From UHGV virus genome UHGV-0075702: a stretch of 18,339 bases of DNA. One strand, given 5' to 3'. Each line of letters starts with the position of its first letter. The stretch's first letter is position 1. A model generated the notes under the pieces. The model saw nothing but the letters and a program-made list of their open reading frames with translations. It did not search any database and was not told the origin of the DNA. Of the stretch, positions 2,624 to 8,302 are shown one piece after another. The translations under genes and the position numbers were made by a program. The DNA is from a virus.

Positions 2624-3228
2624 TAAGCAGTTGCCCCTTCTAATTCGTCTCGTCTGATGTTGTAAACGTCCTGCGCTTTGTGCTGCTCCGGCGTCCCTTC
2701 GAGCATCTTCCACGCTTTGGCGAACGCCTGTTTAAGCTCTTCTACGGTGTTTTTCTGCATTGCTGCGTCAGTGAATGCTTTTAGAACCTGTTCAGGTGTA
2801 AGTGATGGTTTTGATTGCTTTGCTGCTGCGTTCTGCTGATGTTTATGCTCGTCTGTATCTGCATCTTTCGCATCATCAATGCCGAACAAACCATTGAGGC
2901 AATACTTGCGCGCATAAGAACTTGTAGCTCCAGTAACTTGTGCAGAATCCATTCCTTTCTTGCTTTCTTCCTCTCTTGCGAGAGCGGTTGCCGTATGGCG
3001 GTTTTCGCCATCGGTAATAGTTGCCGTGGCTTTCACATAATACCGATCACCAATCAACACAACTTCATCGCTGATTGATAAAAACAGGCCATTCAGTAAC
3101 GGCTTAACGCCTTCAAGAATGTCTTCGCAGCTTCTGTATTTATATTTACCGAATGAGTTGTACTGATTCTTTGGCGCGTTCAGATTCTCCTGAATAGCTG
3201 CCAGTCTTGCATAAAATTCTTTGCTCAT
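2623..3228 (-). CDS. erf: ERF-family single-strand annealing recombinase (P22 Erf-like)
   Basis: Translation MSKEFYARLAAIQENLNAPKNQYNSFGKYKYRSCEDILEGVKPLL... closely matches my recollection of P22 Erf. Start chosen at the internal ATG (3228), 11 nt after the stop of the upstream small ORF. Confidence 0.8.
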   Translation of the reverse strand: MSKEFYARLAAIQENLNAPKNQYNSFGKYKYRSCEDILEGVKPLLNGLFLSISDEVVLIGDRYYVKATATITDGENRHTATALAREEESKKGMDSAQVTGATSSYARKYCLNGLFGIDDAKDADTDEHKHQQNAAAKQSKPSLTPEQVLKAFTDAAMQKNTVEELKQAFAKAWKMLEGTPEQHKAQDVYNIRRDELEGATA

Positions 3229-3777: not shown

Positions 3778-4745
3778 TTAGTAGGTTATTTTTGTTGCGA
3801 ATACTTCGCCTTTTACGATGGCTGTTATGATATTTTTAGCAACATCTTCTGATGCGCCAACCTTGATAAGGTCAGCAAGTATTTTGTTATTTACTTCTTT
3901 CCGGTGAGCTTTATCCTTTGCTCTACGCTCTTCTTCTTCCTTGATTCTTTTTTCTTCTGCTATTCTGGCTTGCTCTTTTGCTTCAGCCTCGCGCCGGATT
4001 CGTTCAGTCTCCTCCTGTGCTTTTCGGCGTTCTGCTTCAATTGCCGCCTGCTTTTCTCTTTCAGCTCGTTCTGCTGCCTCTTTTGCTTCGCGCTGTGCTC
4101 GTTGCTCGGCTTCAATGCGTTCACGCTCTGCACGTTCCGCTGCGGCCTTAGCTTCTGCTTCTCGCCTTGCTGCTGCTTCAATTTCGGCTTTTGCCTTTGC
4201 TTCGGCTTCTGCTCTGGCTTTCTCTTCAGCTTCTCTTTTTAAGCGTTCTTCATGCTCTCGCTTTTCCTGCTCCGCTTTGAGTCTTGCCTCTTCTCTTTGG
4301 CGGTCAAATTCGCGATCCATCAAAATCGCTATTTCATGGTCAGACTCAATTTGCTTTGCGAGAGCTTCAGCTGCTGCCTTAGCTTCTTCTTCGGCTTTAA
4401 TCCGCGCCTGTTCCTCCTCATAATCAGTAAGAGGCTGGCGAGCCTTGCTTTCAGTTCATCAAGGCGATCGCGCACTGTCTTGCGGTTGGCATCAATTAGC
4501 TTTGGAATTTCCTTCAGTTCAGCAACAAGGTCTTTGCCAAGACCATCGAGATATGTTTTCGTCTGCGCAACTTTATACGCCAGAGAAGCGATCTCCTTTC
4601 TGCCCTTTGCCGTTGTGATATCAGGCACAAAGGACATAACTTCACGTTCAACCTTTTGGAGAATTTCTTCAATCTGGTCGGCAGACTGAAATACAGTCAT
4701 TGCATTTGCTTTTTCAATAACAACTAAATCTGTTACTTCACTCAT
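3778..4745 (-). pseudogene. frameshift-interrupted gene: N-terminal domain (4329..4745) plus Ala/Glu/Arg/Lys-rich TolA-like repeat and C-terminal domain (3778..4323); pseudogene, sequencing error or frameshifting not distinguishable
   Basis: Two track ORFs abut. The downstream frame stays open upstream to about 4455 and reads as plausible protein (LTDYEEEQARIKAEEEAKAAAEALAKQIESDHE...), while the tail of the upstream frame (RLASLLLIMRRNRRGLKPKKK...) looks like out-of-frame junk. GGAGG RBS before the ATG at 4745. Confidence 0.5.
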
Positions 4746-5625: not shown

Positions 5626-5961
5626 TCAAATAAGTGGTTTGCTGCCTAATTTCATTTTCTGGCGACCAACACAAGTCACACCCATTTCACTGCGTGGCTT
5701 GCGGTAGTAAATACGGTTCTGTTTACTCTCGACTTCTTCTGCCTTCTTGCAGCGAAGGCTTCCGAGTGATATTGCTTTTTCAGAAAGGCTTAAACGCTTT
5801 CTCGGGGCTTCCTGAACAGGTTCCTCACTGTCTGTACTGAAGATCGAATCGATGATGTTGCAGATGGCATCACGCTCGATAGCCAGCTTTCTGCGCCGCT
5901 CATGACGGCGAGTTTTGGCATTTCCTGCAAATGTTGATTTCCCGTACACGATTACCGTCAT
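5626..5961 (-). CDS. N: N-type transcription antitermination protein
   Basis: C-terminus ...GVTCVGRQKMKLGSKPLI resembles lambda N (...GITCSGRQKIKGKSIPLI from memory), with an Arg-rich N-terminus (AKTRRHERRRK). Start taken at the internal ATG with GAGGAAAA RBS. nut-like sites lie upstream. Confidence 0.75.
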   Translation of the reverse strand: MTVIVYGKSTFAGNAKTRRHERRRKLAIERDAICNIIDSIFSTDSEEPVQEAPRKRLSLSEKAISLGSLRCKKAEEVESKQNRIYYRKPRSEMGVTCVGRQKMKLGSKPLI

Positions 5962-6080
5962 GATATTTTCCTCATGTGAAATGGCTTTGGTGGTGATGCG
6001 CCAGATGCTGATCTTCTGGTTGCTGTCGTTGCAGCTGCAATTCACATCACCGCCAAACCCATCTCGTTTGGTATCTGTTT

Positions 6081-6200: not shown

Positions 6201-6370
6201 ACGAAATTTTTGTGATTTATTAATGCAGCGAGATATGATTTTGATATATAAGGAAATTTATTTTTGTAAATGCTGCAGATTGGTCTGTAGTTGGAGGGAG
6301 TATTGCTGGTGAGTTGGTTCGCGGTTTACCACATTTGCGGCTATTAAATATGGGAGGGCGAACGTGAGGC

Positions 6371-6396
6371 AAAGAAAACCCGGCGCTGAGGCCGGG
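6371..6396 (-). terminator. intrinsic terminator closing the cI-peptidase transcription unit
   Basis: Minus strand: CCCGGC-ctcagc-GCCGGG followed by TTTTCTTT, about 15-30 nt after the stops at 6411/6427. Confidence 0.6.
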
Positions 6397-6410
6397 TTGT
6401 GAGGAATTAA

Positions 6411-6590
6411 TTACAGAGCAAAGAGATCATGCATTAGGTTGCTGTTCATCTGGTGGTTGAATTGATACGGCTCCAATTCCTTCTTGATCTCGTTCAGGTG
6501 TTGTTCCGCTTTTTTTGCCAGATCGTGACCTTCTTGGATCTGGCTTTCCAACATCTTGTTGAGAATTTCCATCTCCGGTTGCAGATTCTT
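6411..6590 (-). CDS. alternative-frame small ORF (59 aa, MPKNLQPEMEILNKMLESQIQEGHDLAKKAEQHLNEIKKELEPYQ...) overlapping the 3' end of the peptidase ORF
   Basis: Part of track ORF 6411..6686. GAGG 9 nt before the ATG; helical-looking sequence with E. coli-preferred codons (ctg, gcg, ccg, aac, atc), whereas the overlapping peptidase frame uses rarer codons. Only one of the two frames is likely coding here. Confidence 0.25.
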   Translation of the reverse strand, partial: KNLQPEMEILNKMLESQIQEGHDLAKKAEQHLNEIKKELEPYQFNHQMNSNLMHDLFAL

Positions 6591-7428
6591 CGGCATTAGC
6601 TTTTTCCTCTTTTTGTAGATACGTTGTACAATCAATAACCCTCGGCTTTCCAAATGTTGGAATGTCACCATTATGAATTTTGTCACAGAAAAGATTATAG
6701 AGTATTTCTGTTATACCTTTAGGATGCTCAACACACTTGAAAAGTTCCTTGGCTTCTTTTCTGTCGATAACAAATCCATGTGAAGGATATGAGGCTATTA
6801 GTTTGCCTAACGCCCCTTCTTTTAGGCTGCTTGGTTTGTCTGCTAATCGTTGGCCATAAGTGATAGCTATACTCATTGCGCGCTGATGTTCACCAAGCTT
6901 TATTGGATCTATCTGTGCGGCCATAGGTGCTATCAACGCTTCTGTAAGTCTGGTCGCGATATCAGCAGACATTTTGGTACTTATCTGATTTTCGTATCTT
7001 ATCTTAACAAGGTGTGAGTTAAACGCTGAAATAGAGCGTTCCTTTAGAGCATCAAGAGCTGTCATGATAGCTAAACCAGAACTCATCTCACCTATTTCAT
7101 CGTTTTTTTTCAGTTGGATATCTAATGGCCCAAGCTCCCCCATGTCACCAATAACAAGTTTATTGGCTGCTATAGCTATTAGTGTACCAGCACTTTTGCA
7201 TGGTCCAACAACTAAAAGTGTTACCGTTTCATAATGGTGCTGTAGAGCTCTACCTATACGATAACCTGCATTTGGATCACCGCCATAAGTAGCAACACAG
7301 AAGATAACATTCTCTTTTAATCCATGTTGTGACTTACGTTTCTTGATTTCATTGGTGAGATCAAGATAACCATCACGATGAATATCGCCTGTATACACAT
7401 AAACATCATGATTTTCAATAGAATTCAT
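6427..7428 (-). CDS. Clp-fold serine peptidase (SDH / SppA-S49-like) at the position lambda uses for rexAB
   Basis: The segment VIFCVATYGGDPNAGYRIGRALQ...LLVVGPCKSAGTLIAIAANKLVIGDMGELGPLDIQ follows the pattern I recall for SDH-family/S49 proteases (...SPGG...ALR...MSGGTLIALAADEIVM...LGPVDPQ). GGGAG RBS. The body from about 6600 to 7428 is visibly AT-rich. The last ~85 codons are low-complexity, so the 3' end is uncertain. Confidence 0.65.
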   Translation of the reverse strand: MNSIENHDVYVYTGDIHRDGYLDLTNEIKKRKSQHGLKENVIFCVATYGGDPNAGYRIGRALQHHYETVTLLVVGPCKSAGTLIAIAANKLVIGDMGELGPLDIQLKKNDEIGEMSSGLAIMTALDALKERSISAFNSHLVKIRYENQISTKMSADIATRLTEALIAPMAAQIDPIKLGEHQRAMSIAITYGQRLADKPSSLKEGALGKLIASYPSHGFVIDRKEAKELFKCVEHPKGITEILYNLFCDKIHNGDIPTFGKPRVIDCTTYLQKEEKANAEESATGDGNSQQDVGKPDPRRSRSGKKSGTTPERDQEGIGAVSIQPPDEQQPNA

Positions 7429-7594: not shown

Positions 7595-8302
7595 TCACGA
7601 ACTTTTCAGCCACTCCCTTGCCTCGATGTCATCCAGATGGCGAGATTGCTTCAGAATACCAGCCACATACTCCACCTTTGCTACTTGATGATAAGGCAAC
7701 GTTATTGGCCTGTGGTCCTGGTTGATGCTTGTAAATTGGTATTCTCCGTCTCTGTCATAGCCAAGAACTTTGATCATGTTGTGTCCTTCAACAGTTCTGA
7801 CAAACACCTCATCACCCGGGAATACTTTGGTGTTAGGCTCAATGAGTACATATTCTCCTGATTTTATTCTGGGCCACATGCTGTCTCCTTTCACACGAAG
7901 ACCAAAGGCATCTGGATCATCGCTATAAATCTTGAGCCACCCATCGCGCTCTTCGGTCATCTCGATGGCACCATCAACACCAAGAATTGCCTCACCAACC
8001 ACGCGCACTAACCCTTTTTTTAATTTGCCAACAAATGAAAGAGTATCTTCATCATTCGCTCCATTTAACGAAGTGCCGTGCTGAAGCCAAACAACATCAA
8101 CGTTTAGAAATTTCGCAAGCGCATTCATTTTTTCCTGACGCGGTAAAGACTCAGCATTAAACCATTTGCTAACGCCTTTGGACGAAAGAGAAAGGGCACG
8201 GGCTATGGCCATCCCCCTACCATGTTCATCAAGACCAGCTTCTTTACAGGCTTGCGCTAGCCGCTGGGCGAATTCTTTGCGCACTTTTTCATTCTGAACC
8301 AT
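7595..8302 (-). CDS. cI: CI-type prophage repressor (N-terminal HTH plus C-terminal S24/LexA-like autocleavage domain)
   Basis: 235-aa ORF with an HTH-like N-terminal region and a C-terminal region containing G-D-S-M (LRVKGDSMWPRIKSGEYVLIEP), typical of the S24 Ser-Lys dyad. Divergent from cro across a 78-bp operator region. Confidence 0.9.
   Translation of the reverse strand: MVQNEKVRKEFAQRLAQACKEAGLDEHGRGMAIARALSLSSKGVSKWFNAESLPRQEKMNALAKFLNVDVVWLQHGTSLNGANDEDTLSFVGKLKKGLVRVVGEAILGVDGAIEMTEERDGWLKIYSDDPDAFGLRVKGDSMWPRIKSGEYVLIEPNTKVFPGDEVFVRTVEGHNMIKVLGYDRDGEYQFTSINQDHRPITLPYHQVAKVEYVAGILKQSRHLDDIEAREWLKSS

Follow-up and report, generated by a model that had tools for sequence, protein, structure and literature searches.

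What is encoded at the 3' end of a phage peptidase gene where two reading frames of the same strand lie over the same DNA? The window, that is the whole stretch of 18,339 nucleotides (nt) analysed here from UHGV virus genome UHGV-0075702, is the early and immunity region of a lambdoid (P22-like) prophage. On its minus strand, frame A (6427..7428; 333 codons plus a TGA at 6429-6427) encodes a putative SDH-family serine peptidase of the ClpP/SppA fold, and a +1 open reading frame (ORF), as listed, spans 6411..6686. A previous sequence-only reading had drawn attention to these two frames, which are indeed present, and had proposed a frameshift in the peptidase, a fused or overprinted small gene, or a recombination junction. 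Comparison of homologous sequences now makes it very likely that the +1 frame holds a real, independently initiated and selected gene that overlaps a maintained peptidase tail. This unannotated gene, B (MPKNLQPEMEILNKMLESQIQEGHDLAKKAEQHLNEIKKELEPYQFNHQMNSNLMHDLFAL), has 61 codons (6411..6596, TAA at 6413-6411). The dual-coding overlap is 170 nt long (6427..6596), B codons 1-56 lying over A codons 278-333 and the A stop.

Homologous DNA, with peptidase identities from 100% to 57%, was gathered from viral, metagenomic and genome collections. The enterobacterial-type loci examined all have an open +1 frame over the tail, with a recognizably conserved peptide (...EMExLN...LEPYQ...). The frame-B stop is found 16 nt past the frame-A stop in nearly all these loci, and the +2 frame is closed within 2-15 codons. 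The B homologues have 61 amino acids (aa) and are 72-93% identical. Ratios of nonsynonymous to synonymous substitution rates (dN/dS) were calculated by the Nei-Gojobori method on 49 gapless codons of 17 sequences, and the proportions of nonsynonymous and synonymous differences (pN/pS) were pooled over six roughly independent pairs. For unsaturated pairs, dN/dS is 0.04-0.23 in frame B vs 0.9-2.9 in frame A and about 1 in frame C. The pN/pS values are 0.21 for B (P=2.8e-17 for the nonsynonymous deficit), 1.06 for the A tail, 1.51 for frame C and 0.06 for the peptidase body. The fastest codon position also changes: it is A3 in the body (0.53-0.57 differences per site) and A1, equivalent to B3, in the tail (0.42-0.51), where A3 is the slowest. 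This phase switch excludes that the region is coding in A alone, however relaxed the constraint. At the level of sequence evolution, these measurements show that B is the selected frame and is under strong purifying selection.

Frame A is subject to a different demand. When the A-tail peptide is held fixed and synonymous codons are resampled, B is open in 40-100% of trials because polar tails contain no NTN codons; the open frame of B was discarded as evidence, since it is expected from composition. When the B peptide is held fixed and given the codon usage of the body, frame A would hold 2-7 stops, and it is open in only 0-0.001 of the trials for the close clade and 0.02-0.075 for the distant clade. 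All homologues have an open frame A. Among 50 T-ending B codons (12 sequences), not one stands before AA, AG or GA, vs about 42% of positions, and synonymous divergence is lower in B (pS 0.41) than in the body (0.63). The comparison shows a frame A that is kept stop-free with an amino acid sequence free to vary, selection for openness being less firmly established than selection on B. The sequence-only reading had looked to homologues to tell which of the two translations is conserved: they do keep the full 333-aa frame open, tail included, and the alternative frame is conserved better than this tail.

The start of B is conserved as well. Its ATG (6596-6594, minus strand) is preceded by a Shine-Dalgarno (SD)-like GAGGA (6605..6609, minus strand), the GAGG core of which (6609-6606) lies exactly 9 nt before the ATG, as had been estimated from the letters. 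The ATG is retained in 16 of the 17 aligned homologues, although the A-frame residues there vary (N/D/H then A/V/D/G). At locus L105, it is relocated two codons downstream and has its own GGAG. GAGGA, GGGGA, AAGGA or GGAG is found about 6-10 nt before the ATG in almost all 17 homologues, loci L103 and L104 having weaker SD-like signals. Upstream of the ATG, the B frame is open over a variable length (-199 to -349 nt) without conservation, so that the B gene is the 61-codon unit and not the 91-codon ORF starting with GTG. From these conserved signals, we infer that B is initiated independently at 6596. With the purifying selection on B, they favor the overprinted form of the small-gene proposal.

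Could B instead be reached by ribosomes that started on the peptidase? A programmed +1 frameshift from A to B near codon 275 would give a peptidase with a helical C-terminal domain, in which case B would not exist as a protein of its own. In favor of this, the B frame remains open 5' of its ATG as far as 6686, an A7 run lies within the overlap, and frameshifting can be stimulated by an internal element resembling an SD, as in prfB. However, hypervariability and an indel in the linker before the B ATG leave no conserved shift site there. The A7 run is not conserved either, and a shift on it would lead from B to A, not from A to B. The open stretch upstream of the ATG is the variable one described above. 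Moreover, a fusion requires neither a conserved ATG nor the relocated start of L105, nor an open frame A, and relatives with 4- to 14-nt overlaps give B its own start. A programmed shift is thus very unlikely. The simpler suggestion of a frameshifted peptidase gene does not hold: the full 333/334-aa frame is intact in 28 complete Escherichia coli genomes as well as in viral and metagenomic loci down to 57% identity, and the RefSeq proteins are full-length.

The sequence-only reading had also been struck by a change of composition, which is real. The A tail has a GC content at third codon positions (GC3) of 0.15 and 23% rare codons (6 GGA, 2 CGA, 2 TCA and others), whereas B has a GC3 of 0.63 and 1.7% rare codons. 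An index similar to the codon adaptation index gives 0.53 for the A tail vs 0.68 for B, in agreement with the E. coli-preferred codons seen by eye; these values, based on approximate E. coli codon frequencies, are themselves approximate. The fraction of T at third positions is 0.15 in B vs 0.40 in the body. Near 6600, overall GC content shows a modest rise, the body having 0.39 and the overlap 0.44-0.45. The rare-codon character of the tail is therefore confirmed, but its length had been overestimated at about 85 codons: the disordered part has about 59 (275-333). The shift in GC and codon usage at the overlap results from dual coding, through the codon usage of B, and the tail is polar and disordered in composition because the second codon position of A is the first of B.

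These data bear on the idea that the peptidase gene received a foreign 3' segment by recombination near 6600. The rise in GC from 0.39 to about 0.45 would fit such a junction, as would the hypervariable 24-nt linker with its indel at 6613-6636 and the mosaic nature of lambdoid immunity regions (PMC8585504). But the body and the overlap co-vary through the whole homologue series, from 100% to 57% identity, the compositional shift is explained by B codon usage, and the tail has diverged less than the body, with no discontinuity. A clear mosaic boundary does occur, past the terminator. We therefore consider a junction near 6600 to be highly improbable.

A family-wide picture was obtained from 80 distant loci, found by a contig scan of representative genomes and used for this purpose and not for dN/dS. 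Of about 75 evaluable loci, almost all have an ATG-started ORF of 50-75 aa at the peptidase 3' end, with few exceptions in the +1 frame. The extent of overlap goes from 4 nt, at the least, to an ORF lying wholly within the peptidase gene. Where the overlap is small, the peptidase has only 261-300 aa and lacks the tail (L028 from Acinetobacter, L030, L033 and L040), and in the relatives with 4- to 14-nt overlaps the small gene has its own start. The small ORFs fall into clade-specific families, found in Proteobacteria and Acidobacteria. In the beta-proteobacterial, acidobacterial, xanthomonad and Cellvibrio clades, B-frame identity is 0.37-0.73 vs 0.21-0.44 for the A frame, the beta-proteobacterial figures being slightly diluted by a wrong anchor at L022. 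In these four clades, A-frame identity is about that of a non-coding frame and B3 is again the fastest position. The acidobacterial family contains both nearly separate and deeply overlapped members. The existence of three architectures (separate, overlapped and embedded) suggests that the tail arose as the peptidase frame extended over a pre-existing downstream gene.

The families have recognizable motifs: HQMP..VQ.ALRQAS in the beta-proteobacterial clade, FWxxPELxEL in the acidobacterial clade and QMDKAYxFAR in the xanthomonad clade. The longer form M..THQMP..VQ.ALRQAS..S.E.AR is present at beta-proteobacterial loci L031, L032, L034, L035, L038, L068, L022, L023 and L027 (about 3780..3900 in each) and is unrelated in sequence to the enterobacterial LEPYQ type. 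Longer forms of the other two types are FWxxPELxELxRR and QMDKAYxFARM. All-against-all phmmer comparisons link B to the small ORFs of Enterobacteria and Aeromonadaceae and weakly to those of Bartonella. Common ancestry of all the small genes would have to be inferred from position and size only.

These relatives also bear on the single-gene alternative, in which only the peptidase is coding and B is an accident of polar tail codons. The frequent opening of B in the resamplings with a fixed A-tail peptide would fit this view, and RefSeq and nearly all gene callers annotate the peptidase alone. Against it, a pN/pS of 1.06 in the A tail with A3 as the slowest position is the opposite of what coding in A only would give, and B shows a strong nonsynonymous deficit. 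The ATG and SD of B are retained though the overlying A residues vary, B-frame identity exceeds A-frame identity in four other clades, and tail-less relatives have a small ORF of like size and character as a separate downstream gene. That B is accidental is extremely unlikely. As for a sequencing or assembly frameshift or a pseudogene, for which the A7 homopolymer at 6510-6516 and one metagenomic contig with a chimeric B/A reading there (P0008) might be invoked, it is almost certainly wrong, the same frame layout recurring among the 28 complete E. coli genomes, which represent three levels of divergence, and in dozens of viral and metagenomic contigs of independent origin, with the two stops spaced by 16 nt in nearly all.

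Several observations weigh against the view that B is a real gene maintained together with a peptidase tail, or against the role that one might give to the pair. The dN/dS estimates of overlapping frames are mutually dependent. Under the strictest null, in which B's own codons are permuted, frame A is open in 0.10-0.62 of the trials per sequence. Since relatives with separate genes lack the tail, the tail may have no function of its own. Searches of B in Pfam, PHROGs, NCBIfam and PADLOC gave nothing significant, and phmmer gave no link between B and the small proteins of the other clades. Foldseek found no match of the B model in the PDB, a result expected for a single helix. One homologue, from Neisseria, lies outside a prophage context. 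Finally, the peptidase has no PADLOC match, so that a defense role would be an argument from position only.

The B product is predicted by AlphaFold2 to be a single helix from residue 3 to residue 60, with a mean predicted local distance difference test score (pLDDT) of 86, in line with the helical appearance of its sequence. Hydrophobic residues at positions 5, 9, 12, 16, 20, 27, 30, 34, 37, 41 and 44 have, as read from the sequence, the 3-4 spacing of heptads, with one gap at G23. The C-terminus, which extends past the overlap, is conserved in character ([DE]-x-[FYL]-x-[LFM]). B has neither cysteine nor signal sequence. Matches of B to MSP7_C and xseB were considered as noise. The A7 run within the overlap (6510..6516, minus strand) reads AAGAAAA in loci L002 and L003. 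P0008, a single metagenomic contig from ENA, encodes there a 55-aa chimera made of B residues 1-28 followed by the frame-A tail (…DLAK joined to SGTTPERDQ…). This reading points to a change from A7 to A5, either a sequencing error or a natural variant truncating the peptidase tail.

Against the peptidase itself (frame A), PF01972 scores 29.6 bits, just below its cut-off of 31.3, and is assigned to most homologues in precomputed Pfam data. NF047768 reaches 36.7 for a cut-off of 250. The protein matches phrog_21683 at 8e-185 and is named 'SDH family Clp fold serine proteinase' in RefSeq. Weak matches to head-maturation protease models are also observed. With Foldseek, the nearest solved folds are those of SppA (3rst, 4kwb), the stomatin-specific NfeD protease 1510-N (3bpp, 3viv, 6m4b) and ClpP, with E values from 3e-5 to 6e-4. 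In the motif CKSAGT, K78 and S79 are invariant across 30 sequences. The predicted model is that of a ClpP/crotonase-like fold with a conserved serine as candidate nucleophile.

The folded catalytic domain corresponds to codons 1-274 (6607..7428, minus strand), as delimited by the predicted structure and by the pN/pS of 0.06. Its pLDDT is mostly 73-96, with a lower value of about 50 over residues 101-120. This domain, which includes residues 249-274, is conserved in frame A. From residue 275, where the ribosome-binding site of B and its ATG (codon 278) are located, pLDDT drops to 26-32. This C-terminal tail, codons 275-333 (6427..6606, minus strand), is polar and predicted to be disordered. The peptidase gene of the 28 complete E. 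coli genomes has about 99.9%, 96% or 90.6% DNA identity with that of the window, and a 333/334-aa protein is annotated in every E. coli genome inspected in RefSeq. Homologues down to about 45% identity, in many genera, have 320-340 aa and a polar C-terminal tail. Between the folded domain and the ribosome-binding site of B, the 24-nt stretch 6613..6636 (minus strand) is almost wholly different between genes that are 96-99% identical elsewhere, and alignment of close relatives reveals an indel of 3 nt. This stretch could represent either a hypervariable linker or a short patch of gene conversion. At locus L100 (IMGVR_UViG_2907888185_000007, about 2780..2930), the peptidase body contains one nonsense codon, between …VKIR and ENQ…, and the embedded B ORF is wholly intact; L100 could be a recent pseudogene or a case of B persisting without the peptidase.

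The peptidase gene is located between a repressor gene, upstream, and an intrinsic terminator, so that the whole locus stands between the repressor and N. The repressor, of CI/LexA type (HTH_3 and Peptidase_S24; 7595..8302, minus strand), is directly upstream and co-directional. The terminator, a hairpin followed by a T-run (6377..6398, minus strand), begins 12 nt past the B stop and closes the transcription unit of the repressor, the peptidase and B at 6398..6377. Ea22, Erf, Ral and the N antiterminator (5626..6045) are encoded on the minus strand, like the peptidase and the repressor. Cro, CII, a DnaB-type helicase and Q are on the plus strand, beyond the repressor. Although the listed N ORF starts with a GTG at 6045, its match to Pfam N_peptide begins only at residue 29 (MTVIVYGK…GNAKTRRHERRRKLAIE); the true start is probably the ATG near 5961. 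The segment GNAKTRRHERRRKLAIE resembles an arginine-rich motif of the P22 type.

The order repressor then peptidase is also found in E. coli, Klebsiella Rac-like and Bartonella prophages. The module lies directly 3' of co-directional CI/LexA-type repressors at L001-L004 (E. coli) and L128-L132 (Klebsiella, Bartonella), in prophages that are mutually unrelated (lambdoid, Rac-like with YdaS/YdaT, Bartonella). In E. coli, differing repressor alleles are seen beside the same module. This recurrence could reflect a functional tie to the repressor or merely a favored cargo slot. The same slot is occupied by rexAB in phage lambda and by bstA in BTP1, and the interval between cI and N is a known hotspot for abortive-infection genes (PMC8585504). 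On the other side, similarity among the peptidase-carrying prophages stops just past the terminator. A 53-nt segment bearing the terminator (6356..6408) is common to 109 phage records at 90-99% identity, many of them unrelated lambdoid and Stx phages, among which H-19B, BP-4795 and many Stx1a/Stx2a phages do not have the peptidase; 890 E. coli records match, most of which appear to have this segment only. Judging from these alignments, the terminator segment behaves as a mosaic joint and the real mosaic boundary is just past the terminator.

Known systems offer several points of comparison. The Rz/Rz1 spanin genes exist in embedded, overlapped and separated architectures (PMC6139136), and the same three are seen among the relatives of the peptidase/B pair. 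In both cases, a small +1-frame gene lies within the 3' part of a larger same-strand gene of lambdoid phages, the embedded gene is routinely missed by gene callers, one frame of the common DNA has few structural requirements, and loss of the upstream stop codon is a plausible route to embedding. However, there is no homology between the two systems. Unlike an o-spanin, a lipoprotein with a lipobox cysteine, B lacks a signal peptide, a lipobox and any cysteine; unlike an i-spanin, with its N-terminal transmembrane domain, the peptidase lacks such a domain. The pair belongs to the immunity region and to the repressor transcript, not to a lysis cassette. Here, the embedded gene is the structured and constrained one, and the host frame is disordered and unconstrained.

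A second parallel is the lambda C/Nu3 pair, in which Nu3 is nested in C; Shaw and Murialdo reportedly described it in 1980 (cited in PMC8508860). The C protein is an S49 peptidase. In both systems, a phage gene for a serine peptidase of the ClpP/SppA clan has a smaller coding unit nested within the 3' third. Nu3 is in frame with C, unlike B, which is out of frame and has only 61 residues. In addition, C and Nu3 are late genes of the head-assembly cluster, whereas the peptidase and B follow the repressor and have the repressor, N, Ral and Erf as neighbors, not head genes.

Third, peptidases of the NfeD (1510-N)/stomatin and SppA types have as target either the C-terminal segment of a partner from the operon or their own C-terminal end; SppA C-termini are bound in their own active sites in PDB entry 4kwb. 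B, a predicted helix that is encoded next to the peptidase and whose hydrophobic C-terminus is conserved, would be comparable to such a partner. The comparison is no more than an analogy, the present peptidase being soluble and without a membrane anchor, and B not being an SPFH protein. Finally, like rexAB and bstA, the pair is directly 3' of the repressor in the same orientation, presumably under its promoter, and is followed by a terminator before pL/N (PMC8585504). It differs from them in having no sequence similarity to RexA, RexB or BstA and no PADLOC match.

How might such a pair work? For B as an independently initiated gene, ribosomes starting at the peptidase ATG (7428) would read frame A to the TGA at 6427 and produce the catalytic domain with its 59-residue disordered polar tail. 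Other ribosomes would initiate at GAGGA-N8-ATG (6596) and produce the separate 61-residue helical protein. Because both genes are on the repressor transcript, both products would be expected in lysogens. The ancestral state would be a peptidase gene followed by a translationally coupled small gene, as in the relatives with peptidases of 261-300 aa; in most lineages, the peptidase frame would later have been extended over the small gene. By analogy with the systems above, we tentatively suggest as one possibility that B is a dedicated partner of the peptidase (regulator, pseudo-substrate or substrate) and that the pair is prophage cargo, plausibly for phage exclusion. A bolder proposal, that the peptidase and B, as a small coiled-coil protein, make up a two-component module, ancient and obligatory, which annotation has missed and which serves on the repressor transcript as a new kind of exclusion or abortive-infection system, is rather doubtful. 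In such a system, the peptidase would form a ClpP/SppA-like ring to which the hydrophobic C-terminus of B docks, B serving as gate or pseudo-substrate, and infection would free the peptidase. Alternatively, a decoy protease/scaffold pair might spoil the capsid assembly of incoming phages, since the fold is common to head-maturation proteases. In either version, the overlap would enforce co-inheritance and a fixed expression ratio.

B has largely escaped annotation. A B profile searched against 1.84 billion representative proteins retrieved 4 entries only. One 61-aa B call could be traced; it is at the start of a contig, where the peptidase ORF is cut off. In the only phage record holding B, the locus is labelled 'SppA protein'. 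The module was not found in the searchable literature on the SDH/Clp-fold family, PF01972 and SppA/ClpP-like phage defense, and neither the peptidase nor B has a match in PADLOC-DB v2 at E values up to 1. As judged from sequence, B is a new and well-supported example of a gene embedded out of frame, and it offers a clear example of an overprinted frame being the disordered one. The C-terminal tail, predicted to be disordered, by which the annotated length of this peptidase family is set is for the most part the shadow of another gene. Embedded genes suppressed by gene callers can be exposed through a switch in codon-position phase, as used here. For the uncharacterized occupant of the rexAB/bstA slot, two components can now be tested, and single-base changes exist by which one product is lost and the other remains synonymous. 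More broadly, the small gene represents a missed protein family, and peptidases of this kind recur directly behind the repressor in E. coli, Klebsiella and Bartonella prophages and are found in many other bacteria.

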